Of a stretch of 64,000 nt of DNA, positions 9,691 to 61,747 are shown piece by piece (position 1 is the first letter of the stretch; the number at the start of each line of letters is the position of its first letter). Position numbers and translations under genes: made by a program. The DNA is from a virus. Location of the stretch: the IMG/VR virus record IMGVR_UViG_3300036791_001355, positions 1 through 64,000 of that record; one strand, written 5' to 3'. The notes under the pieces are model-generated. The model was not told the DNA's origin, made no database searches, and saw nothing but the letters and a program-made list of their open reading frames with translations.

Positions 9691-11318
9691 GCCTTGGCGC
9701 GTACCAGGGTCAGGGCGTCGTTGCCCGCCGCCGTCAGCATGCTCTCGGGCAACTCACGCAGGTGATAGAGGTAGGTATAATAACACCTACAGTTGTGCGT
9801 AACGATTCCATTGGCTATATACCAGCCGCTACTGGTCTGTAGATTGAACACATGCCCCGTCCAGCGCCGCTGATCGACCTTGATGATGCGCGTCACGCGT
9901 ACGAAGCGGGAGAGAGCATTCTCTCGCTGTCCCGTCGGCTGGGAGCGTCGTGCCGATATCTCACTTACAGCCTGGAACAGGCTGGCGTCACGCTCCGCAA
10001 CGGCAGTGAGGCCAGCGTATTGCGGATGGCCCGCGCAGGTGCCGAGGGCCGCGCCAAGCTGATCGCCGCCGCCCATGCCGCCCGTCGCGGCAGTAAGGCG
10101 TCCGAAGTCGAACTGATCCGCCGCGCCAGCCGCAAGCCCCGCCTGCACGGGTTCGGTGAAGACCACGTGCTCACCGCGCTGCATGCCGTCGGCATTGCCG
10201 CCGAAGCGCAGCGGCCGGTCGGTCCATACAACGTCGATATCGCTTTCGCTGCCGTCGCCGTGGAACTGCTTACGCTGCCCACCGCGCACCTCCGTGACCC
10301 CAAGTTCGAACAGCGCGCCGAATATTTGCGCAATGTTGGTTACTGTGTGGTCTTGGTGACTTTCAGATGGAGATACCCGGATGATCTCACCGGCAACCTC
10401 GATGAGGTCATCGCCTTCTTGCAAGGCGCCAATAGCGACCCAGCCGTCAGGCGTCAGGACTGGATGATTCGGTGTGGCGCGCAGCGTTTTGCCCGTGGCC
10501 GTAATCACCTTGGTCAGCTGACCGCTGTACCAACGCCGGTACGCTACTTCCACACCGTCAGCGAATGGAATCTGCGTCGTGCCGGGTAAGCAGTACACTT
10601 CCTCGCCCGGCTGCGTGATCTGGTCGGTGTAGCCGGCCCGCCCGGCCTTCATCAGGCGCTGCTGCAAGGCCCAGTTGCCCCGGATGGCATAGACCCAGTC
10701 GGCGCCCTTGTAGCGGGCGTCGCGGTCGCGGTGATCGGGCCGGAAATCGTAGTGCACCTGCCTGAAGTGACTGCGCCACAGGGCGGCGATGGCGCCGCCG
10801 TCGGTGGCCAGGATGCTGTTGATCGCCGACACCAGCTTGTGGCCCTGGTCGATCAGCACCCGCCGCTCGCGGAAACTCTGCCCGGCCAGTTCCTTGCGCA
10901 CGTCGTTCTTGGTCTCGACCTTGTCGACCTTGGCGCCGCCGACCGGGATCGAGGTGGCCCAGCCCTGAAAGCGCCGCAGCGTGTCGGCGATGGTCTGCTG
11001 GCGGTTCAGCTTGATGAGGTTGGCCGAGGCCAGGATGCGCCGGTCTAGCTCGGCCCGCAGCTTCGGCTTGACCAGTTCCAGGGTGAAGCGAGAGACGCCC
11101 GGGTGGTGGCGCAGGATCAGGCCCCGGTTGATCAGCCGCTCATAGGTGCCCGCCAACACCCGGCGCAGCTGCTCGTCCAGCACCGCCTCGGAGACCATCT
11201 GCTCCAGCGCCGACTGGCGGATGGTCTCGACCCAGTATTGCAACCGCTCCTCGCTGTCGTAGCCGTGCTCGGCGAGATCGGCGACGGCGGCCGAGACGGT
11301 TTCGAAGAACGTCGCCAT
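9687..11318 (-). CDS. MuF/SPP1 gp7-like head morphogenesis protein interrupted by an intein
   Basis: RRVLIDQGHKL...YDFRPDH...QPGEEVY|intein|CRCYYTYLY; position after portal. Confidence 0.85.
   Translation of the reverse strand: MATFFETVSAAVADLAEHGYDSEERLQYWVETIRQSALEQMVSEAVLDEQLRRVLAGTYERLINRGLILRHHPGVSRFTLELVKPKLRAELDRRILASANLIKLNRQQTIADTLRRFQGWATSIPVGGAKVDKVETKNDVRKELAGQSFRERRVLIDQGHKLVSAINSILATDGGAIAALWRSHFRQVHYDFRPDHRDRDARYKGADWVYAIRGNWALQQRLMKAGRAGYTDQITQPGEEVYCLPGTTQIPFADGVEVAYRRWYSGQLTKVITATGKTLRATPNHPVLTPDGWVAIGALQEGDDLIEVAGEIIRVSPSESHQDHTVTNIAQIFGALFELGVTEVRGGQRKQFHGDGSESDIDVVWTDRPLRFGGNADGMQRGEHVVFTEPVQAGLAAGAADQFDFGRLTAATGGMGGGDQLGAALGTCAGHPQYAGLTAVAERDASLFQAVSEISARRSQPTGQRENALSRFVRVTRIIKVDQRRWTGHVFNLQTSSGWYIANGIVTHNCRCYYTYLYHLRELPESMLTAAGNDALTLVRAKA
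9792..10592 (-). mobile_element. Intein (267 aa) in MuF, lacking an in-frame endonuclease
   Basis: N-terminal CLPGTTQI, block B LRATPNHPVLT, block F/G GHVFNLQTSSGWYIANGIVTHN followed by Cys+1; removal restores EEVY-CRC. Confidence 0.9.
9852..10589 (+). CDS. HTH + Vsr/DUF559-like (PD-(D/E)xK) putative homing endonuclease encoded antisense inside the intein
   Basis: YEAGESILSLSRRLGAS...LEQAGVTLR (HTH); GEDHVLTALHAVGI..Q.PVGPYNVDIAF..VAVEL...R.EYLRNVGYCVVLV (DUF559-like pattern). Confidence 0.7.
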   Translation: MPRPAPLIDLDDARHAYEAGESILSLSRRLGASCRYLTYSLEQAGVTLRNGSEASVLRMARAGAEGRAKLIAAAHAARRGSKASEVELIRRASRKPRLHGFGEDHVLTALHAVGIAAEAQRPVGPYNVDIAFAAVAVELLTLPTAHLRDPKFEQRAEYLRNVGYCVVLVTFRWRYPDDLTGNLDEVIAFLQGANSDPAVRRQDWMIRCGAQRFARGRNHLGQLTAVPTPVRYFHTVSEWNLRRAG

Positions 11319-11319
11319 G

Positions 11320-11562
11320 TCAGGGCGACTTGTCTCGCTTGGTGTCCTTCACCCACCAGCCATTGACGGCCCCACCGCCGCCCTCGTCAGCGAAGTTCTC
11401 CCGGCGGTAGTCGAGCAGGCCCTGGGCGCTGAGACGGTGCAGCTTGGCCCGCGCGGCGCGGGTGTTCCAGCCGAACCGGCGCGCCACCGAGACGGTGGTG
11501 ACCGGGCCGGCGCGGCGGACGAACTCCAGCAGGCTCTCGGTCCAGGCTGGATTGGCGCGCAT
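11320..11562 (-). CDS. Small winged-HTH protein
   Basis: LLEFVRRAGPVTTVSVARRFGWNTRAARAKLHRLSAQGLL. Confidence 0.6.
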   Translation of the reverse strand: MRANPAWTESLLEFVRRAGPVTTVSVARRFGWNTRAARAKLHRLSAQGLLDYRRENFADEGGGGAVNGWWVKDTKRDKSP

Positions 11563-11565
11563 GCC

Positions 11566-11814
11566 TTAGTGGACCTGCACCACGCGCCACGCCATGCCAT
11601 TCTTCTTGAGGATGTTGTCCAGCATCCTCATGGCCTCATCGGGCTGTGTCTCCACCAGCGTACCCATCAGCGTGATGCCAATAGCGAAGCACGCCCGGTT
11701 GACGGTGTGCTCGCCCTCGCAGCGCGTTTCGACATAGGTCCGCGTGGCGTCGGCGCAGTAGGTGATCATCCGCTCCATTTGCTCGCTCGCCTCGGCAAAC
11801 TCGTCCGGGGTCAT
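11566..11814 (-). CDS. Hypothetical protein
   Basis: GGAGG SD, tight packing with neighbours. Confidence 0.55.
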   Translation of the reverse strand: MTPDEFAEASEQMERMITYCADATRTYVETRCEGEHTVNRACFAIGITLMGTLVETQPDEAMRMLDNILKKNGMAWRVVQVH

Positions 11815-12176
11815 GGCCAGCCTCCCATCAGCGTCCTTGGCCCGCTACGCCCGGTGCACGGCAGCTGCCATGCCTGCCGACACGGGGGACACAGGGCTAT
11901 GTGTGTCGCCGCGAACGCTGATGGAAGCTCGTACGGAATGCCAGTGCCTGCCATCCAGTGCCAATGGGGTGTTACGCTCCTATGAACTAGGTGCTAGGTG
12001 GGTGGGCGTATCGCGCGTAACACAGCTGCCATCCAGTACCAGTGCGCCACCATGCGCCGGCATACCGCCAAAAATAATCTTGACTTCGGAAAAGTCACAC
12101 TCGTAGCGTCGTTTCGTCCGACACACTGTGTGCGAGACGTTTGCCGAAACTGTTCGGCAAAAAAGGATACGACGCG

Positions 12177-13196
12177 ATGGCAAAAACAAATCGCAGCCCG
12201 CAAGCGACAATACCGCTGATTTCGCAGGGCGAACAGATGGTCGCGGCCATCCAGAATACCGCGAAAACCGCCACCCCCGAAGATCATGCTTTGCTTGCTG
12301 ACTTGCAGGCAAAATCCCGCAATCATGGCACTGCAGACACTTACGGGATGGAATTGGTTACTGCCACTCCCGGCTTTTGCGCATTGCTATTTCTCGATCA
12401 GGACCACAACCGCCCCTGGGACCCCAACTGGTCCAACGAAATCGGCCACCTGATGCGCAATGGAAAGTGGAAGCCAAACACCGATTCCTACGCGCTCTAC
12501 GGCGATGACGGAAAGCTCGGCAACGGCCAACATCGCACTGCTGCCCAGGCAGTTACCGGCTTCACATTCAAGGTTCCGTTCTTCCTGGGATTAAAGAAAG
12601 CCGACATCGGCGCAATCGACTGCGGCAAGCCGCGCACCGGAGTTGATCTCGCTGCCCTGTCCGGTATCAGCCGGGCCAAAGAAAAGGCAGGTATCCTCGC
12701 GGGCGTCTGGGGATGCCTTCAGGCTGCTGGGGAACTGGTCCGGCAGTATCGCTCACCGGACGATATCGCCATCGAAATCCAGCAGCACGACAAGATGCTC
12801 GCGCGCTCGTTGGAGATTGGTTACGTCTCTGTTGAGCATGCCACGACTCCGGTCCTGCCTCCCACGTTAGCGGCAAAACTGGCTGGGCTGCTCCTCTTCA
12901 AAGGCTGGCCGGAACGCCGCATGATCGACCGGCTGGACGAACTCCAGTGCGCTGATTTTGCTTCTGACAAAGCCCCGCTCGCAGTGGCCCGGCAGTACAT
13001 CGCCTCGAACCGCAAGCCGGACGACACGCTCACGCCGCAGAAAGAACTGGCGGTGGCAGTGAAGGGATTCGTGCTCGCTGAGCAGGGTGCCGTCACCGCC
13101 AAGAAGGCCGAGCTGACCGTGGCCCGCCAGAGATTCCCGGACGCCTCCTATCCTGGCGTGGTACCGGCCGCTCCGACTGTCCAAGCCGCAGACTGA
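12177..13196 (+). CDS. ParB/Srx-fold N-terminal domain protein
   Basis: HNRP...MRNGKW...LGNGQHRTAA...IDCGKPRT; lower GC; start set to ATG 12177. Confidence 0.6.
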   Translation: MAKTNRSPQATIPLISQGEQMVAAIQNTAKTATPEDHALLADLQAKSRNHGTADTYGMELVTATPGFCALLFLDQDHNRPWDPNWSNEIGHLMRNGKWKPNTDSYALYGDDGKLGNGQHRTAAQAVTGFTFKVPFFLGLKKADIGAIDCGKPRTGVDLAALSGISRAKEKAGILAGVWGCLQAAGELVRQYRSPDDIAIEIQQHDKMLARSLEIGYVSVEHATTPVLPPTLAAKLAGLLLFKGWPERRMIDRLDELQCADFASDKAPLAVARQYIASNRKPDDTLTPQKELAVAVKGFVLAEQGAVTAKKAELTVARQRFPDASYPGVVPAAPTVQAAD

Positions 13197-13272
13197 TCCC
13201 GTTCGTGGATATGGGCCGTCCATGTCGCATTGATGGCGGCCCGGTCTGTGTCTTCGCGATGCGGGGGGGATC

Positions 13273-14178
13273 ATGCTCAACGTGGTAACGGAAGACGCGC
13301 GCTCCGAGGAAATCTCGTGGCGTTTGCTGCAATACGAACTGGCCGAGATCGAGCGAAACTATAGCGAGGCCCTGGAGCACTGGGTTCGGGTCGGTCACTA
13401 CCTGCTGGATTTGCAAAGCAAGTATCCGCCGCACGGCGGCCAGTTCGGCCAAGCCTGCGCTCGACACGAGATAACCCTGACCGTCCAGCAACGGTCAGCG
13501 ATGTGGTGGACGACGCTGGAAGACGATCAGCGGGCCACGCTGCGGGAGGAATCACCGGAGGCGCTGGAACCGGAGAGTCTGCAAAAGGCTTGCCGTAAAT
13601 ACCATCCGGCATGGGCGAAGCGCAGCGAATCCTCAGTCTTCGGACGGTCCGAAGACTCAAAAACCAAACGCAAACGAGGGAAGAAGCCGATTCTCAAAGT
13701 CGCGGGAACCGAAGCCGATGAGGCAGAGCCGAAGCCCGAGAAACTGCCGCCGCGCCCCAAACCAACCGCACGCACGCCGAGTCAGTTGCGAGCGCAGCAA
13801 TACAAAACCACGCCGCCGCAGCCACTACAACCGAAAGAGCAGTCTATCATCTGGTATGGCGTCCAGCTCTGGCCACCGGACCCGGCCAATGCACTGATGC
13901 ACGGGGTCTACGACTATCGCCAGTGGTTTTGCGCCATCCGCGATTTCCGCAGCGTCACTGACCTGTTCGCCGACCGCTCCCCCCACAGCATCGCGCAAAA
14001 CATGCGAACGCGGTGCAAGAAGTTCAAACTGATGTTCGCCGACGGATACTCTACCGACAAAGCCGAGGCACTGCGCGATTTGGTCGGCTGTCTCGACACC
14101 CTGACAACGCTGATGGCAGTTAATCCCGAAGGCGAATGCCAAATTCCGGCTGACATCGTCCTGTTCAAGGGAACCTGA
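13273..14178 (+). CDS. Hypothetical protein (DUF3102-like N-terminus possible)
   Basis: Long ORF co-oriented with ParB-like gene; WVRVGHYLLDLQSKYPPHGGQFG. Confidence 0.5.
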   Translation: MLNVVTEDARSEEISWRLLQYELAEIERNYSEALEHWVRVGHYLLDLQSKYPPHGGQFGQACARHEITLTVQQRSAMWWTTLEDDQRATLREESPEALEPESLQKACRKYHPAWAKRSESSVFGRSEDSKTKRKRGKKPILKVAGTEADEAEPKPEKLPPRPKPTARTPSQLRAQQYKTTPPQPLQPKEQSIIWYGVQLWPPDPANALMHGVYDYRQWFCAIRDFRSVTDLFADRSPHSIAQNMRTRCKKFKLMFADGYSTDKAEALRDLVGCLDTLTTLMAVNPEGECQIPADIVLFKGT

Positions 14179-14201
14179 CGGCCAGCCAGCAGGAGAAGCC
14201 G

Positions 14202-14507
14202 ATGGACACCCGCAACCGGATCACCATTCACGACGTGGCCGCTGACCTGGGCCTCGAACTGAGCCACGCCCAGGCATGGCGCATCGGCGATGCCGTCAAG
14301 CGCATCCACCGCTGGGATACCGGCGAGCTGCCGGTCAAGGACAACCGCACCAAGAAGGCCGGCACCGGCAGCCACTGCTTCGCGCTCTATCCCGACACCG
14401 CCGAATGGCGCGAGCGCATCGCCCGCCAGATCCGCACCGTCAGGGCCGAGGAGCCAACCACGCAGACCGACCTGTTTGCTACTCCCCCATCCCCGTCTTC
14501 TGCTTGA
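14202..14507 (+). CDS. Hypothetical, probably DNA-binding protein
   Basis: AGGAG SD; ITIHDVAADLG...AWRIGDAVKR. Confidence 0.6.
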   Translation: MDTRNRITIHDVAADLGLELSHAQAWRIGDAVKRIHRWDTGELPVKDNRTKKAGTGSHCFALYPDTAEWRERIARQIRTVRAEEPTTQTDLFATPPSPSSA

Positions 14508-16056
14508 ACGGCATCACCTTGGGCTGCTTCTGACCACCGCCGCCGGGAGGCCCACCACCACCGCCAGGAGGGCCGCCAGGGCCGCCACCCGCACCACCCG
14601 GCCCACCACCACCGCCCATGCCCATGCCGCCCTGCATGGCCTGCTCCTGCTGCTCCTGCTGCTTGGCGCCAAACTCCGCCAAGGCCTCGGTGTCGAGCAC
14701 CAGCGGCACGCCGAACAGCAACTCGGTGTCGGCGATGTTGTCGCAGGCCCAGTCCAGCACGCGCGCCTTGTTCTCCGGGTCCATGTTGGGCAGGAACGTC
14801 TCCACCACGCCGATGATGGCCCGCAGCTTGACGTCGTCGGTCTTGACCCGCTCGCTCTCGGGCTCGATCAAGAGACTGGGCCACGAGGCGATGAAATCAT
14901 TCTGCCACCGGCTCATGGCCGCCTCGTACGTCATCTTGCCGTACTGGTCCGGGTAGGTCTGCTGCATGCGCTGGAAGAACTCCCGGTTCCACGCCCGGTG
15001 CTGCACGATGCGGTCGAGGAACTCGTAGGTCGGGTGCATCTCCTCGCGGAAGCGCTCGATATACCGCGCGATGTTCTTGGCATCCTCCGAGCCCTCGCCG
15101 AAGCCGGACACCAAAGTCTCGTTCTCCAGCAGCACCGCCGGCATGTCCGCCGCCGTGGCGAGGTTCTTGAGGATGTTGGTGCGCGCGAACGTCCCCGCCC
15201 CGTCGATGTTCTGCATGTTCAGCGTCTCGATGTTTTCCTCCACGTCGATGCTGAGCACGTTGTCGGTCTGCGCCTGCTTCAAGAGCGAGCGCTTCATGCT
15301 GGCGATGCCCACCATGACGCGGTCAATGATGCTGCCGGGGCTCTTCATCTTGGCGATCAGCACGCCCGCCTTGCGGGTGATCATGTCGTCGGTGCGCATC
15401 GATTGGATGAAGCTCTTGAGCGGGAACAGCGAGCGCTGATACACGCTCCGCCCGACATAGCCGAAGGCCGACGAGGTGAAAGCGATGTAGACCGGCTCCT
15501 CGTTCATGATCACGCACACCCGCGAGCGGTGATAGGTCTGCCCCTGGGTGGTGATCACCGTGGTCTTCTGGAACTCGGGCGAGTTGGGATCTTGGCTGAG
15601 AATCAGCGACCCCGCCGTATTGAGCGGATCGAGCACGTTGAAATAGAGTTCTTCGTCGGCATAGCGCTCGGGCGGGATCACCTCGGTGGAGGGGATGCCC
15701 ACGGCGCCGACGACGATGCTGGCGATGCCGTAGGCGCGAGCGAGACGGTGGCCGCTGTGGATGATGCGGTCGGCGTGAATCGCCCCCCACTGGCGCTCGA
15801 AGGCTTCGTGGACGTCGGGCGGCGCGCCCGCCACCTCGATCTTGCGTTTCTGCGACTGCGCCAGGGTGATCGGCGCCTCCACCATCTTCGCCCCCAGCGG
15901 GTGGTAGAGCAGGATGGTCTTGCACAGTTGGTAGCTGGGATCGGAGCCGGGCACGATGTCGTCGGCGGTGAGCATCTCTAAGAGCGCCGAACCCATGCTG
16001 GAGGTGCTGAGCGTGAGCATGGCGCCGGTCGGCTCGGGGCCTGAACTGCCTGACAT
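14479..16056 (-). CDS. Portal protein (DUF1073 family)
   Basis: SYQLCKTILLYHPLGAKM...YHRSRVCV...FGYVGRSVYQR...ATAADMPA...GFGEGSEDAK; between terminase and MuF. Confidence 0.85.
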   Translation of the reverse strand: MSGSSGPEPTGAMLTLSTSSMGSALLEMLTADDIVPGSDPSYQLCKTILLYHPLGAKMVEAPITLAQSQKRKIEVAGAPPDVHEAFERQWGAIHADRIIHSGHRLARAYGIASIVVGAVGIPSTEVIPPERYADEELYFNVLDPLNTAGSLILSQDPNSPEFQKTTVITTQGQTYHRSRVCVIMNEEPVYIAFTSSAFGYVGRSVYQRSLFPLKSFIQSMRTDDMITRKAGVLIAKMKSPGSIIDRVMVGIASMKRSLLKQAQTDNVLSIDVEENIETLNMQNIDGAGTFARTNILKNLATAADMPAVLLENETLVSGFGEGSEDAKNIARYIERFREEMHPTYEFLDRIVQHRAWNREFFQRMQQTYPDQYGKMTYEAAMSRWQNDFIASWPSLLIEPESERVKTDDVKLRAIIGVVETFLPNMDPENKARVLDWACDNIADTELLFGVPLVLDTEALAEFGAKQQEQQEQAMQGGMGMGGGGGPGGAGGGPGGPPGGGGGPPGGGGQKQPKVMPFKQKTGMGE

Positions 16057-18243: not shown

Positions 18244-18245
18244 GG

Positions 18246-18808: not shown

Positions 18809-18809
18809 C

Positions 18810-20887: not shown

Positions 20888-21076
20888 TTAGCGCGGCCAA
20901 TGGGTGAGGAGCCAGATGATGGCAGCGCCGAGGGCGAGGGTGGCGGCGGAGAGGCCGAGCATGGCGCCGGTCATGGTGCCGTTTCCCTGGTCGAAATAGG
21001 TCATGACGAAGAGCAGCAGGATGATGAGCAGGATGATGGCCAGGGAGCCCCATCCTGCGGCATCCAGGCCGCTCAG
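20888..21076 (-). CDS. Small two-TM membrane protein (not in ORF track; apparent CTG start overlapping MTase stop)
   Basis: (L)[61 protein letters not shown]. Confidence 0.4.
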   Translation of the reverse strand: MSGLDAAGWGSLAIILLIILLLFVMTYFDQGNGTMTGAMLGLSAATLALGAAIIWLLTHWPR

Positions 21077-22629
21077 GGGTGTGGGCCTGTGGCGACATAG
21101 GCGAACAGCGGGAGGTCGTCCTCGACGCGCTGCTTGGCCATGGCGCAGTAGGTGGGGTTGAGGTCGATGCCGATGGCGTGGCGCTGGAGTCTATCGGCGG
21201 CGAGGAGGGTGGTACCGGCGCCTGAGAAGCAATCTAAAACTACACAGGGAACCGGAGCAGGAGTTGTCCACTCCATGCGTGATCCACAGTGTGGGCATTG
21301 CCGCGCATCGGAAACGTCCTCTGACAATGAGGGCAGGTCACAATGTAGACGGGCCTCTTTGCCCCGTCGTGCTGTCTCTTTTCCATCAGTTCCAGATTGC
21401 TGAGGCGATTGTCGAGCCTGTTGCCATTCTTGTGGTGGACCACCTCGGCCGAGGTCAGAAGCCTGCCCAGCTTCTTCTCCATAACCAGCCGATGCTCCAT
21501 CACGTAGCCATCGCCCGTTGCATTCGGATGGCCCTTCCGAAGAAGCATCCGGTAACCCTTTGAGGTTACTGTCCACCCCTTCGTTGTGGAGCGATTGGCC
21601 GCTGTCCACCTTTGAGCACAAAGCCTCGAACAGCATTTCTGCCTGCTGGCCACTGGCTGAAACAGGATCGCGCATTGGCTGCATTTGATCGGCTGAAGAA
21701 TGCGTCGTCCTGGCATCCTTATGGTCTAGCACGGCCTCACATTTGACACACCGGTATTCATGGCATGGGCAGGCGGGTGTCCAGCCGGTGGTGAGGCGTT
21801 GTATGGGCTCGTTGTAGGCGTTGCCTGCGGTGCCGCGTGAGTGCCGTGCCTCTTGCTTTGGTCCCATCCAGTGATCGTGGCGGCGGTAGGTGATTTCGCT
21901 CTGGCGTATCCATGGGGCACCGCACTGGGCACAGCAGCCGTGCTCGGAGGTTCCGGCCTTGATGCATCGCTCGGCCAGTTCGGGCGGCATGGTGGCGAAG
22001 TGAGCGGCGCTATAGGAGGTGGTGGCGATGGTCCACACGTTGCGGGCGTTGGCGCCCAGAGGATTGAGGGTGACCATGGCGTCCTTGCCGCCCAGGGCGA
22101 TGCGGGCGCCGCGCTCGCCGGTCATGGTGTGGCTGAAGCCGTTCACCGGGGAGCGGGCGCGCTCGATGCTATTGGCTTGGTGCGGCTCGCGGATGGCGTC
22201 GGCGTCGTAGAAATATCTGGGCTGTTTGGTGAGCAGGAAGATGTGCTCGTGGGCTGAGGTCGGGCGGTCGGTGATGGATTCCGGCATGGGATTCGGTTTG
22301 CACCAGATGATGTCCGAGCGCAGGTACCACCCGTCCGCTTGGAGCGCGAGGGCGACGCGGGCGGGCATTAGCTGCAGCTGCTTGTTGGTGTGGCCGTCGC
22401 CCAGGTTCAGCCACAAGGTGCCATCGGGGCGGAGAATGCGGCGCACCTCGCGGAAGACCGCGACCAGGGTGGTGATATAGGCCTCTGGCGTAGCTTCCAA
22501 GCCGATCTGGGCGGCCATGCCATAGTTCCTGTGCCCGTAGTAAGGGGGGCTGGTGACACAGCTGTGGACGCTGCTTGCGGGCAGGGTGGGCAGGATGGTG
22601 CGGCAGTCGCCTTGCAGCAGGCGATTCAC
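21073..22629 (-). CDS. DNA N4/N6 methyltransferase (beta class) with a large in-frame insertion
   Basis: [46 protein letters not shown]; start probably GTG 22629 (track gives 22740). Confidence 0.88.
21240..21716 (-). CDS. HNH homing endonuclease nested in the +1 frame of the methyltransferase gene
   Basis: CSQC..F....CCSRLC zinc finger; [18 protein letters not shown]...[20 protein letters not shown]; C-terminal CPHC. Confidence 0.88.
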
Positions 22630-22685
22630 AGGAGCGAGATTTCGAGCGACCCTCGCTGCGAGAGCGAGGCTTCGAGCAACCCCAC

Positions 22686-22943
22686 CTACGCGACCTGACG
22701 GGTGACGCGCCCCGGTGGGTTGTCGATCAGGCTCAGCCACTGAGAGACGGCGGGCGTGCCGTGCAGGCGGTCAAGGCCGCGCAGCCAGGAGGCCAGGGCA
22801 GCGTCGATGGGTTCACGGCCGCGCAGCTGCTTGCGGGTGAAGCTGTCGTCGCGCTGCGCCATTTGCCACAATAACGTCTGGGACCAGCCGAGACGGGTGA
22901 GGATGGCGCGGGCTTCGTCGGGGGTCATGATCATGGGGGTCAT
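22686..22943 (-). CDS. Small HTH-like protein
   Basis: MTPDEARAILTRLGWSQTLL...GREPIDAALASWL. Confidence 0.5.
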   Translation of the reverse strand: MTPMIMTPDEARAILTRLGWSQTLLWQMAQRDDSFTRKQLRGREPIDAALASWLRGLDRLHGTPAVSQWLSLIDNPPGRVTRQVA

Positions 22944-39329: not shown

Positions 39330-39534
39330 CGTGGTGGTGGAGCTCCAGCGCGTTCTCGACGAGGTCGCGGCGCTGCGGCAGCGGCTGACGCCCGGCGACG
39401 TGCTGGCGCTGCTCGAGGTGAAGCGGAGAGAAGCGCTGGAGGAAGCGGCGCGGGTCGTGGAAAGTTACGGCTACGGACGGTCGCACGGCTACGAACTTGC
39501 CGCCGCCATCCGCGCGCTGAAGGACAAACCATGA
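39322..39534 (+). CDS. Hypothetical protein (ALEEAA...AAAIRALK module)
   Basis: Shared module with next ORF. Confidence 0.55.
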   Translation: MVDVVVELQRVLDEVAALRQRLTPGDVLALLEVKRREALEEAARVVESYGYGRSHGYELAAAIRALKDKP

Positions 39535-39821
39535 GCGCAGTGGTGACGGAGCTGCGCCACTGGCTCAATCAGGGCGTATGTCCGCCGCTGCAATTGGTGC
39601 GCTGCGCTGTCACCGAGATTGAGGCGCTGCGGCAAGAGTTAGAGCTTCGCAGCAGCGCCGAGTTCGTGGCGGCCAATGAATTGACGCAGGCCCGCGCCGA
39701 GGCGCTGGAGGAGGCGGCGAAGGTGTGCGAGCAGTTCAGCCCCGCTCACGGCGATGACAATTGGCGGCCTCAGTCCGAGAGATACGCCGCCGCCATTCGG
39801 GCGCTGAAGGAGAAGCCGTGA
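39531..39821 (+). CDS. Hypothetical protein (ALEEAA...AAAIRALK module)
   Basis: ATGA coupling. Confidence 0.55.
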   Translation: MSAVVTELRHWLNQGVCPPLQLVRCAVTEIEALRQELELRSSAEFVAANELTQARAEALEEAAKVCEQFSPAHGDDNWRPQSERYAAAIRALKEKP

Positions 39822-40273
39822 TGCCGCGTCGCCGGGATCGCGCTGTCGGGTGGTGTGTCTATGTGCTGCTCGATCTGGCGGGCGTGCCCCGCTATGTCGG
39901 CATGACCACCAATCTGGATCATCGCATCGCCCAGCATCGGCAGACTGGCGGTCGATTCAAACGATCCAGGCAATACCACCAAGATCTCGTAGCGTTTTGC
40001 AAGAATGGTTTCCGGATCGGCGTGTTTGCGCGCGGATTGACTGAGGCAGAGGCAAGCAATTACGAAGAAATGCTGATCGACCTGTTTGGTAGAACGTGGG
40101 ACGAGACCGGATCTTTATATAACCGTGTAAAGGGAGGTAGATACGCCGGCGGCGCTTATGCTCCACTTTGTCCGCCGAGGGTTATTGATGACTGGCTGGC
40201 AGCCCCCGGCAATGCGGCTTGGGAGCTTGAACGTAAAAAGTATTTACACCAAGCCGGCAAGGAAACGGATTAA
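39821..40273 (+). CDS. GIY-YIG nuclease family protein
   Basis: CVYVL...RYVGMTTNLDHRIAQH...EA...E..LI...G.LYN; low GC; TGATG coupling. Confidence 0.75.
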   Translation: MPRRRDRAVGWCVYVLLDLAGVPRYVGMTTNLDHRIAQHRQTGGRFKRSRQYHQDLVAFCKNGFRIGVFARGLTEAEASNYEEMLIDLFGRTWDETGSLYNRVKGGRYAGGAYAPLCPPRVIDDWLAAPGNAAWELERKKYLHQAGKETD

Positions 40274-40351
40274 CTCCTCTGGAATCAAACGGTTACATTT
40301 CGGAACAGAAATTGCATATGTGTCCCCGTGAACACAGAGGACCACACCGCC

Positions 40352-41002
40352 ATGAAACAGCTCCTTCTCGCCAGCGCCGTGACGCTGGCGATCCCGCTCG
40401 GCGCCGCTGCCGCGCCGAATGAGATCATCAACTTCGCCGGCCCGCTATCCAGCGACTTCATCGCCACCAACCCGACCAGCACCTCGACGGCGCTGTCGGT
40501 CAACAACGTCAACGTCACCATCAGCGGCCTGTTCGGCAACCCGTCCGTGACCAGCGGGGTGATGAACCTCAGCGCGGTCAACACCGATGCGGCAACGAAT
40601 GTGACCGGATTTGCCATTCAGCACTACAATGGGAGTTTCAGCATCACCAACGGGGGTGCGGTTAACTACCTCTCGGGCACCTTCACCGACGCGGCATTCG
40701 GCGCCCTCGGCGGCGATGGATTGACGGTAAATGTAACAAATCCACCGGAGTCGTTAACATTGACTTCCAGCGTCATCCCGGCCAGCGACCTCGTGCCACC
40801 GACGGCGTTCGACCTTTCCATGAGCGCGGTCAACCCACCGTTGACGATTGCCAACGGCACCATCCAGGCATTCGCCGCCAGCTTCACGGGCGACGCCTCG
40901 GCTAACGTGGCGACAGGAGTGCCCGAGCCGGCCTCGCTCGCCATCCTCGGCACCGGCCTGCTGGGCCTTGGCTTCGTCATGAGGAGGAACCATCGTGCGT
41001 AA
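40352..41002 (+). CDS. PEP-CTERM sorting-domain secreted protein
   Basis: Signal peptide MKQLLLASAVTLA; C-terminal VPEPASLAILGTGLLGLGFVMRRNHR. Confidence 0.88.
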   Translation: MKQLLLASAVTLAIPLGAAAAPNEIINFAGPLSSDFIATNPTSTSTALSVNNVNVTISGLFGNPSVTSGVMNLSAVNTDAATNVTGFAIQHYNGSFSITNGGAVNYLSGTFTDAAFGALGGDGLTVNVTNPPESLTLTSSVIPASDLVPPTAFDLSMSAVNPPLTIANGTIQAFAASFTGDASANVATGVPEPASLAILGTGLLGLGFVMRRNHRA

Positions 41003-41630
41003 TCTTCTTCTCGGTACAGTCGTCCTGGCCGGTTTCGTCGGTCCAGCCTACGCGGCGGCCTCGCTCGGTCCCGACGCCGCCACCGAAGGCCTGACCTACA
41101 CGCTGACGGAAACCAGCACCTCCGGTCTGATGGCCAGTTTCGAACTACAGATTACCGGCGCCAACACCGCCAGTGACACAATTGGCGGCAGAACCGGAAT
41201 AAACGCCATCGCCTTCACCAACCCGACCGGTGGCCTTGCTACTGCCGTGATGACCTCGCCGGCCGGCTACAACTTCGTCCCGGGCGGCCTGAACAGCACA
41301 GGATGCAACGGCAACGGTGGTTTCTTCTGCTTCGACAATTTAGCCATCCCGCCGACGCCCACTACTTTGGTCAGTGGCACGCAGACGCTCGATTTCACGG
41401 CGACGCTGAATGCCGGCGGCTCTTGGAGCGGCTACAGCCCCGATTTCAAGATCGACTGGGTGGGCCGGCAGAACAACTACAGCCTCGTTTCCGAGGCGAT
41501 ACCAGTTAATATGGGCGGTGGACCGCCGCCGCCTCCGCCTCCCCCGCCGCCGCCGATCCCGGAGCCGGCCTCGATGCTGGTGCTGGCGAGCGCGCTGGCA
41601 GCACTGGGGGTAATCCGTCGTCGCCGCTAA
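40995..41630 (+). CDS. PEP-CTERM sorting-domain secreted protein
   Basis: Signal peptide; CNGNGGFFCF; poly-Pro then IPEPASMLVLASALAALGVIRRRR. Confidence 0.88.
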   Translation: MRNLLLGTVVLAGFVGPAYAAASLGPDAATEGLTYTLTETSTSGLMASFELQITGANTASDTIGGRTGINAIAFTNPTGGLATAVMTSPAGYNFVPGGLNSTGCNGNGGFFCFDNLAIPPTPTTLVSGTQTLDFTATLNAGGSWSGYSPDFKIDWVGRQNNYSLVSEAIPVNMGGGPPPPPPPPPPPIPEPASMLVLASALAALGVIRRRR

Positions 41631-52967: not shown

Positions 52968-52968
52968 G

Positions 52969-54156: not shown

Positions 54157-54165
54157 GACCGGTCC

Positions 54166-56476: not shown

Positions 56477-56703
56477 CCCGCCGATGACCCCGAGCCCATG
56501 ATGGAGATTTCGCCCGGGCCGATGACATGGACGCGCCCCCCCGCATGGAGCGCAGCGGAGTGCGCTTCCTTGGCAGCCTGCGGTGGCGGCTCCTGGCGCG
56601 GCGGCTCCTTGGGCGGCTCCTCCTGCGGCAGTGGCGGCGGCTGCCCCGGCGGCGGCGGCTGCACTGGTTCCGGCGGCGGGTCGCCCGGCGGCTTGTCGCT
56701 CAT
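56473..56703 (-). CDS. Small Pro-rich protein
   Basis: ATGA/GTGA coupled on both sides. Confidence 0.4.
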   Translation of the reverse strand: MSDKPPGDPPPEPVQPPPPGQPPPLPQEEPPKEPPRQEPPPQAAKEAHSAALHAGGRVHVIGPGEISIMGSGSSAG

Positions 56704-58310
56704 TGCCTCTGCTCCTTCAGGTGCTTGACCTCGTATTCCAGGGTGGCTACCCGCGTTGCCAGTTCCTTGCAGGCATTGACCAGCGCCCACAGCACGGGCG
56801 GCTCTTCGATGCCGAGCATGCCGGGCAGGCGCTTGGTGGCGACTTCCTGCTGCATGCGGGCGGCGATTTCAACCACCGCCTCGGGCAAGATATCGCGGGT
56901 CTTCTGGGCGCTGACACCGTAATAGACGGTGCCGTCGTCCACGGTGTCGCCCTCGCCGTTGTATTGAAACGAGACCGGTTCCAGGCTGATGATTTCATTG
57001 AGGCCGCGCTGATAGGGGCGCACGGCGCGTTTGGCCCGGTCGTCGCAGATATTGGGCGCCCAGATCGAACTATAGGCAGAAACATTGCCACTATAGTCGC
57101 ATTGGAACAGATGGGCGCCGTCCGGGCGCTGGTAGGTCATGGTGCCGTACCAGCCGGCCGTCTGCAGCCACTTGAGCGCGAAGCCGTTGCCGGGTTGGTT
57201 GCACCAGTAAACCAATCGCGACAGTTGCTGGTCGACCGCCAGCCCGAACCAGCCGCCGCTCAGACCATAGCCGCCGACCCCGAGTTCGCCATTGCACATC
57301 ATGTTGCTGTTGGCGTTGACATCGTGGTCGGCATTGACGTCGCCGCGCGAGTGGACGTACCCGGCGTTGACGGTGCCGCCCGCGTTCACGTCGCTGTTGG
57401 CATTGACGAAATTGCTGGAATAGACCGCTCCCGCCGCGTGCAGGTCGTAGCCGCTGACATTGCCGCCGACCGCCACCGTGCCGCCGGTATAGGTGCCCGC
57501 CGCGTTGATGTTGCCGTTGGAATAGACGTAGGCGGAGCCGACCCAGCCACCCGCCCACACCGTGCCATTGACGCTGACGTTGCCGCCCGTGAAGGTGTTG
57601 CCGGCGTTGACGTTGCCGGATGACGACAGATAGCCCGCCGTGATGTTCTGGGTGGTGCTGAGATTGCCGCCGCAATAGATGCCCGCCCCCGAGCCGTCGA
57701 TGGTGACGGCGCCGGTCGAGAGATTCCAGGCAAACGGACGCAGCGCGGTCCACGAGCCGTTGGCGTCGTTGGCGTTGGTCTGCAGCCAGTAGGCGTTGGC
57801 GCCGTCGTTGCGCAGCATCACGCCGTAGGCGCCGCCGATGGCACGGAACTGCCCGTAGGGGTCCATGCCGCGCGAGATGAAGCCGGTTGAGGAGCGGACC
57901 TGATTGGTGGTGTCGATGTAGTTGGTCGTTTGCAACCAGCCCTGCACCGTGGTGTTGGCGAACACCGGCGCGATGCTGGCGTCGGTCATGTGCGGGATCT
58001 GCACCATGGCCGACATCTGGCCGCTGGTGGGACCGTTCCAGGCATAGTCGCCGATCACCCAGGACTGCGCCGTGGTGCCTTCCTGGCCGCGCAGCACGGT
58101 CAGCACGTCACCGGTCCGGGCGGTGCAGTAGCACACCTCGTAATTGACGCGGGTGGCGAGGTCGTTAAGCGTCAGCGCGAACTGCTGGTTCGCCGCCGGG
58201 ATGGGAAAGGCGGCGCCGCCGCCCGCCGCCAGGGTGATGACGGTGGCGCCGGGACCAATCGCCTGCCCCAGGCTGGAGCGTGCATTGTCGGAGAAGACAA
58301 AGGCCGCCAT
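56700..58310 (-). CDS. Baseplate-anchored tail fibre with degenerate S74 chaperone
   Basis: FSDNARSSL...TVLRGQEGT; CDDRAKR...YGVSAQ...LVNACKEL. Confidence 0.75.
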   Translation of the reverse strand: MAAFVFSDNARSSLGQAIGPGATVITLAAGGGAAFPIPAANQQFALTLNDLATRVNYEVCYCTARTGDVLTVLRGQEGTTAQSWVIGDYAWNGPTSGQMSAMVQIPHMTDASIAPVFANTTVQGWLQTTNYIDTTNQVRSSTGFISRGMDPYGQFRAIGGAYGVMLRNDGANAYWLQTNANDANGSWTALRPFAWNLSTGAVTIDGSGAGIYCGGNLSTTQNITAGYLSSSGNVNAGNTFTGGNVSVNGTVWAGGWVGSAYVYSNGNINAAGTYTGGTVAVGGNVSGYDLHAAGAVYSSNFVNANSDVNAGGTVNAGYVHSRGDVNADHDVNANSNMMCNGELGVGGYGLSGGWFGLAVDQQLSRLVYWCNQPGNGFALKWLQTAGWYGTMTYQRPDGAHLFQCDYSGNVSAYSSIWAPNICDDRAKRAVRPYQRGLNEIISLEPVSFQYNGEGDTVDDGTVYYGVSAQKTRDILPEAVVEIAARMQQEVATKRLPGMLGIEEPPVLWALVNACKELATRVATLEYEVKHLKEQRQ

Positions 58311-58320
58311 GCAACGTCTC

Positions 58321-59556
58321 CTAGGGGGTGTGAGCGATGATGGTGCCCGCGCCCGCGATGGTCACCGTGGCATAGAGCGGCCCGGCCCCTCTGGCCCGTA
58401 TGCTGCCGCTGCCCGACAGGGTCAGCCCGGCCTGAATCTGCGCCCCGGGTGCCACCACCACGAAGCCCTCGCCGGGCAGGCTGACGGCATTGGTGGCGAA
58501 CTCGATGGTGTTGACCATGAGGCTGCCGACGCCACCGATGGCGGCACTGCCCTGGCGGCCGATCATGACGGCGCCGACGCCCGCGATGATCGCGTTGGCC
58601 TGCCGCGTGATGACGCCGGCACTGACCAGCACGCTGCCGCTGCCGCCGAGGCTCGCGTACGCCACGCGCTGCACGTAGACGCCGTAGTAGTCCCACACCG
58701 CCTGATCCCAGGAGAACTGATCCCAGGTGGTAAAGACAGGCTCCAGCAGCGTCACCGAGGCGGTGGCAGGGATGGTGGCCGGGTTGTTGCCAAAGTCCGC
58801 GCCCGCCACCACCGACACGCTGGCGGTGCCCTGGACGGTCGCCAGTTGCGGCACGAACCTGATGGTGTTGGTGGCGATATGCACCCCAGCCGTGCCTGCC
58901 AGCAGGATGATCGGCTCGATGCGGACGGTGAAGGAATACTGCACCGGCAGCCCGAGCACGCCGTCGAACACCGCGTACTGGAGAATGCGAGCGATGACGG
59001 AATCGGCGACGTCGATGGTGACGGCGGTGCCCTGGCAGGTGATGGAAACGTCGGCGGTGTTGTCGTTGACGGCGAGATAGCCGTTGCGGCCATGCAGGAA
59101 GCGGTGCACCCGCTGTTTCAACCACCTTGTGGTGTACTGCCAGCCGTCGCCCTTGTAGGTGTGCCACGTGAGGATGCGCTTGAACTGATCGTCGTTGAGA
59201 ACGACGTAAGCGGCGCCCGGGGGGCCGACCATCAGGCCCTGGTCGTAGGCCAGCACGCGGTACTCGACGGTGTTGTACGGCCCGGCATCGCCGGTCGCGG
59301 GGGCGATGATGGAGAGGATGGGGCGGATGATGCCGTAGAGCCCGTGCGCCACCCAGTCTAAGAGATCGCCGGTCAGCAGTGAGTAGACCGGCAGATTCAG
59401 GGCGTTGAGGTCATCGACCCATTTCTGGCCCTGATAGTTCTGAGCCGCAACGAAAGTCTGCAACGTGTCGTCATCGCTGTACTGCTGATAGAGGTACGAC
59501 TTGACCACCGTGGCCAGCGAAACGGGGCCAACCGGCGGAAACTGCGCCCCTGCCAC
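58321..59556 (-). CDS. Baseplate wedge protein with C-terminal repeat extension
   Basis: SYLYQQYSDD...LLDWVAHGLYG...DDQFKRILTWHTYKGDG. Confidence 0.7.
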   Translation of the reverse strand: MAGAQFPPVGPVSLATVVKSYLYQQYSDDDTLQTFVAAQNYQGQKWVDDLNALNLPVYSLLTGDLLDWVAHGLYGIIRPILSIIAPATGDAGPYNTVEYRVLAYDQGLMVGPPGAAYVVLNDDQFKRILTWHTYKGDGWQYTTRWLKQRVHRFLHGRNGYLAVNDNTADVSITCQGTAVTIDVADSVIARILQYAVFDGVLGLPVQYSFTVRIEPIILLAGTAGVHIATNTIRFVPQLATVQGTASVSVVAGADFGNNPATIPATASVTLLEPVFTTWDQFSWDQAVWDYYGVYVQRVAYASLGGSGSVLVSAGVITRQANAIIAGVGAVMIGRQGSAAIGGVGSLMVNTIEFATNAVSLPGEGFVVVAPGAQIQAGLTLSGSGSIRARGAGPLYATVTIAGAGTIIAHTP

Positions 59557-59557
59557 T

Positions 59558-61045
59558 TCATGGCCCCTGCGTCACTGTCACTTGCGCCGGCGCGGTCTGA
59601 AAATAGCCATTGGGATCTCCCATGATGGTCATCAGACCAGCGGGCGGGCTGACGGCAAGATTGTCGATGGTGACGATCCAACTCATGCCGGAAATCTGGT
59701 TCAGGCTGATGAGCGTCTCCATGGCATCCTGAGCCTGCTCCTGCGCGGCCAGCAGGTTGAGCGGATTGCCGGCGGGGATTTCGTTGACGTAGGTGACGAT
59801 GGCGGTCTGGGCCAGCTGGTTCAGTACCTGCGCCGAGGGCACCGTGACGGTGGCCTCCCACTTCATGACGATGCTCACCTGTTGCACCGGCGGGGTGACA
59901 AAAGGGATGAAGTAGGTATCCGGAAAATCGCTGACGGGGACGGAGTTGTTGCGCAGATTGGGTGCTGCCACACCGCCGCCGGTATAGGCGGGCCACGTGG
60001 TGGTGTTGACGCCGATGGTGAAGTTCCACGGGTCAACCACGGTCACCGTATAGGAGCCGGTGTTTAGGTTGACCATGCCCAGGACACCGGAGAACGTCAC
60101 CACCTGCCCGCTGGCGTAGAGATGCTTCAGCCCGGTGGTGATGCGGCCGGGATTGGCCTGCGTCGCCGCCGTCAGGTTCAGCACCGAGCCGGTCAGCACG
60201 CAGGGCACCGGCATGGAACGGTAAATGGCGCCCGCCACGGCGTAGGGGTCAGGATTGGAGCCGCCGCAGATCACCATCCACTGGTTGGGCGGCACCGCCA
60301 CCACCGAGGTCTGCTGCGGCGACACGCCGGGAATCTTCTCCAGCTGGGTCTTGAGGAAAGCGGGCGTGCCCTGGCAGGTGGCGACCGAGGCCTGCAGCAC
60401 GCGCAGGCGGTATTGCTGCTCGGTCTCGACGGTCTGCCCGCCCGAGCCCTGCAGCGGGTTCTGCACCGCCAGCCCAACGGTGAGCGGCACGCTGGTGAGG
60501 ATCTGCGTCACCGTCCCGGCGGGCACGGCGAACGAGCCGGCCGTGCTGGCCACCGCCGTCAGCGGGATCGACTGCCCGTTCTGGCCGATGATGCCGCCGT
60601 CCTGCACGATGTAGGTATTGGTGCCGTCGCCGATGAGGAACCCGGCCTGGATCAGATAGCCGACGGTGCCCGAGAAAATCACCTGCACGGATACATTCGT
60701 CGTGGTTCCGAACGGGATGCCGAACAGCTGGCCCAGCTGCGCCATGATGAAGGCGTTGGCGCCGTACGGGGTCAGGCTGTTGATCAGTTCGACGCGGGCC
60801 TGATCGCACAGCACCACCGCGCCGACATCGGTCGAGGAAATGTCCTCGATCAGCGAGCCCGGCAGGGTGGCGGTATAGCCCGGCAGCGGCGGCATCACCT
60901 GATTGCCGCCCGCGTCGGTGCCGTAGGTGACGAGATTGATCAGCTGCGTACGCAACGAGGCCGGGGTCTGCGGCAGCGTGCCCGCCCGCGTCATGACGAC
61001 GGGGTAGTAGAAGGCGTCCTCGACCGGTTCGGGCGGGGTCGGCAT
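59558..61045 (-). CDS. Baseplate J/gp47-like protein
   Basis: LPGSLIEDISST...INSLTPYGAN...ETEQQYRLRV; contains an FCCH-like beta insert (TQANPGRITT...H). Confidence 0.8.
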   Translation of the reverse strand: MPTPPEPVEDAFYYPVVMTRAGTLPQTPASLRTQLINLVTYGTDAGGNQVMPPLPGYTATLPGSLIEDISSTDVGAVVLCDQARVELINSLTPYGANAFIMAQLGQLFGIPFGTTTNVSVQVIFSGTVGYLIQAGFLIGDGTNTYIVQDGGIIGQNGQSIPLTAVASTAGSFAVPAGTVTQILTSVPLTVGLAVQNPLQGSGGQTVETEQQYRLRVLQASVATCQGTPAFLKTQLEKIPGVSPQQTSVVAVPPNQWMVICGGSNPDPYAVAGAIYRSMPVPCVLTGSVLNLTAATQANPGRITTGLKHLYASGQVVTFSGVLGMVNLNTGSYTVTVVDPWNFTIGVNTTTWPAYTGGGVAAPNLRNNSVPVSDFPDTYFIPFVTPPVQQVSIVMKWEATVTVPSAQVLNQLAQTAIVTYVNEIPAGNPLNLLAAQEQAQDAMETLISLNQISGMSWIVTIDNLAVSPPAGLMTIMGDPNGYFQTAPAQVTVTQGP

Positions 61046-61059
61046 CGCTCAGCTGCCGC

Positions 61060-61275
61060 TCAGCGTACGATACGGCCGCGCAGGATCTGGTCGGCGCAGT
61101 GGCGCATGGCCACGGCATCACCCCGGCGGCAGGCGTCCATGTACTTGCTCTGGGCGTCAATCCCAGTGAAAGTGCCCTTGTTCTTCCCGGCGTACAGAAT
61201 GCTAGCGCCTTTTTCCTTGCCATACTCCTTCTGGAGCGCAGCTTTGATCGTCTGTCCTTTGTGCGTCAGAGGCAT
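61060..61275 (-). CDS. Small conserved phage protein
   Basis: MPLTHKGQTIKAALQKEYGKEKGASILYAGKNKGTFTGID; GGAGG SD inside the LAGLIDADG gene. Confidence 0.65.
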   Translation of the reverse strand: MPLTHKGQTIKAALQKEYGKEKGASILYAGKNKGTFTGIDAQSKYMDACRRGDAVAMRHCADQILRGRIVR

Positions 61276-61747
61276 GAGTTCCCCTCCGATTGAGTCTTGG
61301 CATAGCTTCAAAAAAGCACTCGTTCTCTGCAAAGTCCGCATCGGTCATGCGCGTCACGAGACGCCCGCTGATGGGACTATGGGTAGGTTCACGAAGCGGC
61401 ACGGACAGCGCAAGATCAGCCTGTCGTCGTTTCACGATAAGGTAAGGCAGGGCAGATTCGATGACCCATTTAGCGTGCGCTGCTGCGATGGACCATAAAT
61501 ACGTTGGTTTGCGGCCACGCTTTTCCGTGCTGCGCTGGGAATAGAAGTACAGGCCTCCGCCAAACTTAGTACACAACCATTGAATCAATAACCGGCTTGT
61601 ATTGCTTACTTGCAAAGTGACGATGAGATATCTGCGCCCGTGTCTTTTTCGGCCGCCGAACCCGATACACCCCTCGCCGTCGATGATCCCAGCAAGATAA
61701 GCTTTCTCGCATTCCGTCAGAGACGGATATAATTTGCGCGTAGCCAT
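61202..61747 (-). CDS. Free-standing single-motif LAGLIDADG homing endonuclease
   Basis: AYLAGIIDGEGCI...QVSNT...FGG...Y.W...LPYLIVKRRQA; low GC. Confidence 0.88.
   Translation of the reverse strand: MATRKLYPSLTECEKAYLAGIIDGEGCIGFGGRKRHGRRYLIVTLQVSNTSRLLIQWLCTKFGGGLYFYSQRSTEKRGRKPTYLWSIAAAHAKWVIESALPYLIVKRRQADLALSVPLREPTHSPISGRLVTRMTDADFAENECFFEAMPRLNRRGTHASDAQRTDDQSCAPEGVWQGKRR

Follow-up and report, generated by a model that had tools for sequence, protein, structure and literature searches.

Four Nuclease Genes in a Soil Phage Genome, Two of Them Overprinted on Open Host Reading Frames

In this report, we describe four nuclease genes of a soil phage, two of which are embedded in the coding sequence of another gene. 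The stretch of DNA that was analyzed (the window) is the first 64 kb of the 75.5-kb IMG/VR virus contig IMGVR_UViG_3300036791_001355, with a GC content of 65%. The completeness of the contig was estimated to be ~80% (CheckV), and its structural genes include those for TerL, MuF, baseplate J, and a tail fibre. A near-identity DNA search against phages returned no match, and no cultured phage is a near relative. The window contains 282 open reading frames (ORFs) of at least 80 amino acids (aa) at this high GC content, and each nested ORF therefore needed evidence of its own.

The nucleases were counted by six-frame family profile scans over the whole 75.5-kb genome. One intein, one HNH_3 match, one GIY-YIG match, and one weak LAGLIDADG match were found in these scans, and there were no matches to Pfam HNH (PF01844) or Vsr (PF03852). 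A preliminary description of this DNA had placed a Vsr-like gene antisense within an intein, an HNH gene in the +1 frame of a longer gene, a LAGLIDADG gene in terminal overlap with its neighbor, and a GIY-YIG gene in translational coupling at position 39821. All four placements were confirmed. The antisense ORF lies entirely within the intein, the HNH gene is offset by +1 inside an open methyltransferase (MTase) ORF, and the other two genes overlap their neighbors by the short distances given below. The features are listed in Table 1.

Table 1. Nuclease genes of the window with their host and neighboring features (GC3, GC content at third codon positions; HTH, helix-turn-helix; nt, nucleotides)
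Feature	Positions	Strand	Length	Evidence and remarks
MuF-like head morphogenesis gene, intein host	9687..11318	-	543 aa	phrog_15127, 147 bits; phrog_324; GC3 0.81
Intein	9792..10592	-	267 aa	Pfam Intein_splicing and motifs: Cys1, block B TPNHPV, C-terminal THN then Cys
Antisense gene, N-terminal HTH and Vsr-like PD-(D/E)xK nuclease	9852..10589	+	245 aa	relatives, fold match, third-position substitutions
N6/N4 DNA MTase ORF	21073..22740	-		open throughout, likely start near 22629; Pfam N6_N4_Mtase, 152 bits, two stretches
Insert in MTase ORF	21262..21753	-	~492 nt (164 codons)	alignment with insert-free homologues; boundaries uncertain by a few codons
HNH_3 endonuclease gene, +1 frame of MTase	21240..21716	-	158 aa	Pfam HNH_3; phrog_20891, 83 bits
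3' end of insert, all three codon positions conserved, CPHC motif in each frame	21253..21342	-		window compared with contig L010
Gene upstream of GIY-YIG gene, TGA overlapping its start	39531..39821	+	96 aa	GC3 0.80, sequence read
GIY-YIG nuclease gene, start GTG 39818 or ATG 39821	39818..40273	+	~150 aa	Pfam GIY-YIG
Conserved phage gene downstream of LAGLIDADG gene	61060..61275	-	71 aa	GGAGGGG 5-6 nt before ATG 61275
Overlap of LAGLIDADG 3' tail and start of small gene	61202..61275	-	74 nt	sequence read; tail lies beyond the matched domain
Free-standing single-motif LAGLIDADG endonuclease gene	61202..61747	-	181 aa	phrog_5046, 86 bits (residues 13-160); AGIIDGEGC

Antisense Vsr-like gene within the MuF intein

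The intein was detected as an Intein_splicing match at 9792-10559 (-), which scored 36.6 bits in the six-frame scan (cut-off 35.8) and 35.0 bits in the protein scan. The motifs that were read, Cys1 (CLPG), TPNHPV, and THN|C, are those of a Hint-type intein, and the middle of the intein is a Gly/Ala-rich filler. The intact motifs and the function of the host gene in head assembly suggest that the intein is removed from the MuF-like protein by splicing.

The gene on the opposite strand is in the codon-aligned frame. Its ATG is opposite to the His codon of intein block F (GHVFNLQT), the invariant DWMIRC of its protein is opposite to block B, and its stop codon is opposite to Leu2 of the intein. 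No match to this protein was found by phmmer against the PDB or in PHROGs. The AlphaFold2 (AF2) model, with a predicted local distance difference test score (pLDDT) of 85.4, has an alpha-beta-beta-beta-alpha-beta core, and the top match in the PDB is 3R3P (3r3p_A and 3r3p_B), the catalytic domain of I-Bth0305I, which is the type member of the homing endonucleases of the Vsr-like kind. The Foldseek E value, probability, and template modeling (TM) score on the target were found to be 7e-4, 1.00, and 0.67-0.69, respectively, with 22% identity over 92-97 columns. The next matches include the endonuclease-like protein 3hrl, and Vsr itself (1cw0) is found at rank 36. The Vsr-like PD-(D/E)xK catalytic fold is present in the predicted structure, and because the six-frame scan with Pfam Vsr and the phmmer search were both empty, the likeness to Vsr is visible at the fold level only. 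Residues E103, D129, and E138 are invariant across 11 relatives of the antisense protein, and the Asp adjacent to E103 is not.

The relatives of the antisense protein are 36-57% identical to it. Relatives were found in IMG/VR with a two-sequence alignment; a search with the single protein P0004 gave no match. The related family occurs in soil and wetland metagenomes. In the codon-aligned antisense register, each strand need avoid only the codons TTA, CTA, and TCA. All of the synonymous shuffles of the antisense pair were open (100%), and that test is uninformative here because the register bars only these three codons. The chance of openness was calculated instead as the probability that no TTA, CTA, or TCA codon occurs. 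All 12 of the 12 metagenome loci (GC 0.49-0.63, 36-55% identity) have an open MuF-like ORF in the codon-aligned antisense frame. The intein starts at the identical insertion site in every case, and its C-terminal end was located in most. The chance of openness in most of the relatives is 0.0005-0.04, and openness of the antisense frame beyond chance is clear only across the relatives.

The substitutions demonstrate that selection switches along the gene. Between residues 10 and 130 of the antisense protein, the differences are concentrated at the third codon positions of the endonuclease, and between residues 182 and 231, they are concentrated at the third codon positions of the intein. The first part is thus endonuclease-like in its selection and the second is intein-like.

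The family is also found in the genomes of cultured phages. A match to the antisense Vsr-like protein was obtained in 107 phage records, and in the 30 of these that were listed, the feature annotated over the match is never named an endonuclease and is mostly a head or capsid gene. The hosts include Salmonella, Pseudomonas, Klebsiella, Escherichia, and the Pasteurellaceae; in records of Salmonella, Klebsiella, Pseudomonas, and Gordonia phages, the feature annotated over the match is a head gene or another feature that is not an endonuclease. The antisense placement was verified in two of these phages. In Escherichia phage Snoke (GC 0.51), the layout is open with a chance of 6e-4, and the intein is annotated and the gene within it is not. 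In the Pasteurellaceae phage Aaphi23 (GC 0.42), the layout is open with a chance of 4e-6, and the nested gene is again unannotated.

Two further observations were made at these loci. In one relative of the MuF intein (L025:2308-3003, +), the antisense endonuclease frame is interrupted by a stop codon but the frame of the intein is still open, and this endonuclease therefore looks decayed. In the window, the sequence TTGTGC-N17-TATATA upstream of 9852 was read by eye; it fails the promoter-scan rule and is not claimed as a promoter.

HNH gene in the +1 frame of a methyltransferase insert

The second nested gene is located in an ORF for a DNA MTase in which the motifs SPPY and FSGAGTT are present. 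Insert-free homologues of this enzyme, from a Methanoculleus virus and from uncultured phages, are 38-48% identical to it and hold 3-6 residues at the position where the insert adds ~164 codons. These codons lie downstream of the sequence ...GWTPACPC of the MTase. When it is read in the frame of the MTase, the translation is of low confidence, is bounded by RCVKC and QCPHCG, and is probably disordered; the AF2 model of the whole MTase has a mean pLDDT of 53, with values below 50 for the insert. The GC3 of the MTase frame, which is ~0.85 in the flanks, falls to 0.3-0.5 within the insert, and that of the +1 frame rises to 0.65-0.8.

The protein encoded in the +1 frame contains an HNH_3 domain (PF13392), which was matched at 21369-21494 (-) with 49.7-51.6 bits against a cut-off of 24.8. 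The stop codon of the nested gene falls in native codons of the MTase. Over the HNH ORF, the MTase frame contains 0 stop codons, relative to a mean of 6.4 that is expected when the nested protein and its codon usage are held constant, and none of 2000 synonymous shuffles was open (0/2000).

One relative, the IMG/VR contig L010, carries an insert at the same site. Its HNH protein is 70% identical to that of the window and is nested in an open MTase ORF of 874 aa, with 0 stop codons relative to 5.65 expected and 0.03% of the shuffles open. Between the window and L010, the differences within the insert occur at the third codon positions of the HNH gene. In the flanks, the differences by MTase codon position are ordered as third (0.55-0.59) > first > second, and these flanks are under purifying selection. 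The differences at the 3' end of the insert amount to 0.13-0.20 per codon position, whereas the values for the three positions of the HNH core (21522-21343) spread over 0.10-0.47.

Concealed HNH genes were also found elsewhere. The HNH query matched within annotated MTase coding sequences of Mycobacterium phage Mantra and Cylindrospermopsis phage Cr-LKS3. An insert of the type first reported for ShiLan (PMC11855218) has both frames open in 7 of 7 cultured phages (Mantra, Cr-LKS3, OwlsT2W, Starcevich, Bipolar, ShiLan, and Murica), with a synonymous-shuffle chance of 2-6% in each, and the nested HNH gene is unannotated in all seven. Relative to the empty allele of phage Aeneas, the ShiLan-type insert is exactly 606 nt. 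Other relatives of this HNH_3 gene occur in further arrangements. In L013 (GC 0.51), an HNH_3 gene (L013:2279-2800, +) is antisense, in frame -2 and thus not codon-aligned, within the intein of a TerL ORF (L013:789-3305, -); the host frame has 0 stop codons relative to 5.6 expected, and 0/3000 shuffles were open. The layouts of L012 and L014 are the same as that of L013. In L017, an HNH_3 gene (L017:2039-2773, +) is nested in an N6/N4 MTase ORF of the same strand (L017:1408-4062, +) but in a different frame, and the surrounding sequence reads as an intein (CLSDDTEVL ... TLNHRV ... VTGN|S), with no Pfam intein call at E <0.001. Two HNH_3 relatives are in frame within canonical inteins (L016 and L018), and three are free-standing (L011, L015, and L019).

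Since the host frame is free of stop codons, the MTase most likely retains the insert as a loop of ~164 aa. An alternative is that the insert is a self-splicing intron, or another element that acts at the RNA level or by bypass, with an open frame that is incidental or has the sole role of retaining ribosomes on the mRNA. Phage HNH genes are often found within group I introns, introns that carry ORFs can escape the Rfam models, and the conservation of the 3'-terminal 90 nt of the insert at every codon position could reflect RNA or DNA structure. We nevertheless regard this explanation as unlikely. No intron was found with Rfam in the window, in L048 (Murica), L010, or L013, or in the region 20900-22900 at E values of up to 10, where the matches were of the snoRNA type and at chance level. 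The HNH ORF occupies 477 of the ~492 nt, so that a ribozyme core could not fit beside it, and the probability of an incidental open frame is less than 1/2000. The authors of the ShiLan study likewise detected no intron with RNAweasel (PMC11855218). No intein (Hint) motifs were read in the insert. Retention of the loop is thus the reading that we prefer, and excision of the insert at the RNA or protein level by an unrecognised route could conceivably occur.

In the host frame, a CxxC pair is found at each end of the insert; both pairs are conserved in L010, and the insert-free homologues lack them. It is conceivable, if rather doubtful, that the element encodes a zinc staple in the host frame, in which these pairs pin the two ends of the 164-aa loop so that the MTase can fold. 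If this is true, the staple would be an adaptation by which a selfish gene pays for its own insertion, and the last 90 nt of the insert would be truly bifunctional coding sequence.

Several side observations concern these genes. The native MTase codons that follow the insert (21220-21262, -) include GTA GTT TTA GAT (V V L D), which end in A or T despite the GC3 of ~0.85, and the sequence TTAGATTG is common to L010 and the window in the MTase codons just after the insert. The A/T-ending codons may represent a co-converted or cleavage-resistant flank. The MTase ORF of L010 (L010:556-3180, +) carries a second insertion (L010:1469-1921, -) between NVWTIATAP and HFASFPPALAERC, with a classical HNH domain (PF01844, 34.9 bits) encoded antisense and the MTase frame open. 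In the alignment of Murica (L048) with Aeneas (L049), the 606-nt insert begins with SYEPVCVAMKPYG, a diverged copy of the downstream flank of the target, AFEPIVVARKPLVG; the pair looks like a decayed target-site duplication. In addition to its concealed HNH gene, the gp64 MTase of Mantra (L002:919-3243) contains LAGLIDADG_1 in frame (residues 62-159, 59.6 bits). A Hint domain was not detected beside it, and it is an unspliced in-frame endonuclease insert. A similar match is present in gp64 of DotProduct.

Junctions of the LAGLIDADG and GIY-YIG genes

The LAGLIDADG gene is recognized by its AGIIDGEGC motif together with the phrog_5046 match; the Pfam LAGLIDADG_1 and LAGLIDADG_3 matches at 61532-61714 (-) scored 13.7-14.3 bits and are under their cut-offs. 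The small gene into which it runs belongs to a family of which 58 IMG/VR relatives were examined. These proteins start with MPL(T/N)xKG, and their first 25-45 residues are the most conserved. A LAGLIDADG-like motif was found in none of the 58 within the 900 nt upstream of the small gene. Because the 5' end of the small gene is conserved at 58 loci, the LAGLIDADG gene is an insertion that runs on into the start of a native gene. The possibility of a recoded 5' end in the small gene was considered and rejected, as its first 25 codons are in the most conserved part of the family; the lower GC content of this end (0.53 vs 0.63) fits a Lys/Glu-rich sequence.

The GIY-YIG domain was matched at 39851-40093 (+) with 30.3-31.4 bits (cut-off 22.6), and the catalytic domain is thus present. 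The start of the gene overlaps the upstream TGA at 39819-39821 in a TGATG junction, with AAGGAG located 7-9 nt upstream. This junction is the routine translational coupling of phage genes with an overlap of 1-4 nt. The PHROG matches to homing endonucleases are weak (E 0.006), and no DNA-binding domain was recognized in the ~150 aa.

Two neighborhoods of these genes hold features of other kinds. A PEP-CTERM sorting motif is located at the end of each of the two adjacent phage genes at 40328-41002 and 40995-41630 (+), with Pfam scores of 24.5 and 20.4 bits, and a PEP-CTERM-like gene also directly follows the MTase gene in L010 (L010:3301-3978). No exosortase was seen. Because the phage carries PEP-CTERM genes, its host is probably a Gram-negative bacterium that bears an exosortase. 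The baseplate J-like protein encoded at 59558-61045 (-) contains the FCCH domain of ubiquitin-activating enzyme E1 (47.6 bits), which is unusual for a phage baseplate protein.

Interpretation and relation to known systems

We consider it highly probable that the four nuclease genes are independent of one another, with two overprinted elements of the homing type that keep the ORF of the host open and two ordinary cases. The Vsr-like gene, of the I-Bth0305I type, lies backwards inside the MuF intein, with its antisense frame codon-aligned to that of the intein. The intein frame would be translated through, protein splicing would remove the meaningless central stretch, and the nuclease would be made separately from the opposite strand. 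The HNH_3 gene would be expressed from the +1 frame of the ~492-nt insert with the MTase frame kept free of stop codons, and the MTase would most likely be made with a disordered loop of ~164 aa just before the S-adenosylmethionine (AdoMet) motif FSGAGTT. Both nested genes would presumably be active in homing. The LAGLIDADG gene is a free-standing insertion whose ORF continues for 74 nt into a pre-existing gene, and the GIY-YIG gene is joined to its neighbor by a normal stop-start overlap.

Several results weigh against parts of this interpretation. The chance of openness of the antisense pair in this 65% GC window is 0.41, which is not significant alone, and the antisense HNH case in L010 is also not significant alone because the MTase frame there has a 14% chance of being open. 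There is no convincing Shine-Dalgarno sequence at the start of either nested gene, and a scan for sigma-70-like promoters and terminators around the antisense gene found none. No near-identical empty allele was found for either this MTase or the MuF-like gene, and recent mobility is unsupported here for both elements. No RNA run is listed among the sequencing runs with this DNA; the sole run is one of soil-metagenome DNA that may be the source sample.

The co-occurrence of four nuclease families in a genome of 75.5 kb might suggest that the four elements constitute one coordinated system, with nucleases that are mutually dependent or that share dual coding as a mechanism. This proposal is very improbable, since the elements are 11-21 kb apart in unrelated host genes, the relatives of each occur alone in other phages, and two of the four overlaps are trivial. 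The least tenable proposal, that the nested ORFs are artefacts (shadow ORFs of high-GC DNA, or in-frame endonuclease domains displaced by assembly errors), could draw on the spurious ORFs that high GC yields, on the 282 ORFs of the window, and on the openness of the antisense pair in every shuffle and by chance as given above, but it is already refuted by the conservation data: both nested ORFs match real families or folds, both have their own third-position substitution patterns, and the same frame relations are found in independent assemblies (L010 and L023-L034) and in finished genomes of cultured phages down to 42% GC.

Four independent elements, two of them overprinted, remain our interpretation. 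For two of the four genes, the overlap is true dual coding over a long range and is under selection, and the grouping of the four reflects a genome rich in selfish nucleases and not a single mechanism. The preliminary description had grouped them as one class that relies throughout on dual coding. The dependence on dual coding holds for the antisense and HNH genes, where it is selected, and was overstated for the other two because the 74-nt run-on of the LAGLIDADG gene and the 1-4 nt coupling of the GIY-YIG gene are ordinary overlaps; the single class did not hold. Its expectation that annotation drops nested ORFs was borne out by the seven cultured phages with an unannotated HNH gene and by the 30 listed Vsr-like matches. 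The suggestion that such a class has been overlooked is right in that the genes go unannotated, but the class itself had already been published in 2025. As the layout is seen again in independent assemblies as well as in the finished genomes of cultured phages, the nested arrangement is neither rare nor the result of assembly errors, the two outcomes that the preliminary description had named as contrary to its proposal.

These results indicate that homing endonucleases can persist in genes that are essential or useful, with neither a ribozyme nor use of the host reading frame, by overprinting a stretch that is read through. The combination of synonymous-shuffle and codon-avoidance tests provides a simple means of separating selected overprinting from shadow ORFs driven by GC content, and annotation pipelines should permit nested endonuclease calls within inteins and MTase genes. 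Both designs are already in the literature of 2025, and the additions made here are modest: the occurrence of both together in one phage that is not an actinophage, an MTase insert that forms a lineage of its own, occupies a new site, and bears conserved CxxC pairs in the host frame, the codon-level register of the antisense gene, the quantification of selection for open frames, and the wide spread of the antisense Vsr-like family in phages of Proteobacteria.

Out-of-frame HNH genes in the methylases of mycobacteriophages were described by Arsenault, Gosselin, and Gogarten (Genes, February 2025; PMC11855218) for the ShiLan domain and Pacc40. In their reading, there is no splicing, the host frame forms a loop, and translation is unexplained. 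The window shares with ShiLan and Pacc40 an in-frame, stop-free insert in a phage methylase. In each case, the insert encodes an HNH endonuclease on the same strand but in a different frame, lacks an intron or intein signature, and reads in the host frame as a disordered loop. The differences from ShiLan are also clear. The methylase subfamily in the window has a CxxC...CxC module, the insertion is just before the AdoMet motif, whereas that of ShiLan is at ALKP|AFEPIVVARKP, the offset of the frame is +1 rather than +2, the HNH protein is 36% identical to that of Mantra, CxxC pairs are conserved at both ends of the insert, and the phage is not an actinophage and probably has a Gram-negative host. 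The insert in the window appears to work like that of ShiLan but belongs to a separate lineage and is not the same element.

Gosselin, Arsenault, and Gogarten (bioRxiv 10.1101/2025.01.02.630785) reported inteins of actinophages in which LAGLIDADG and VSR-like endonucleases are encoded antisense and EndoVII-like endonucleases are encoded out of frame; antisense LAGLIDADG genes are dated there to 1998 by citation. Some of these inteins are in minor capsid proteins, and the VSR-like endonucleases were connected to 3R3P by HHpred. The design in the window is the same: a MuF-like or minor capsid gene contains a full intein, and the strand opposite this intein encodes a VSR-like endonuclease. The match to 3R3P was made here by fold. 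It differs in that the phage lies outside the actinophages and in that the exact codon register has been worked out. I-Bth0305I (PDB 3R3P) is an EDxHD/Vsr-like homing endonuclease of a group I intron in a Bacillus phage recA gene. It shares the fold of the catalytic domain with the window protein but is encoded by an intron on the sense strand, whereas the window protein has an additional N-terminal HTH and belongs to a family in which, of the ED pair, the Glu alone is invariant.

An association of this Vsr-like endonuclease family with inteins in phage was found by Dassa et al. (2009; PMC2677866). In that study, the endonuclease gene is on the same strand and both the intein and the host gene are split, whereas the intein ORF is contiguous and the endonuclease gene is antisense in the window. 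Overlaps of 6-69 bp between the 3' end of an endonuclease gene and the start of the downstream gene were also reported there and are the precedent for the LAGLIDADG overlap, although the downstream start in the window is native and is not supplied by the element.

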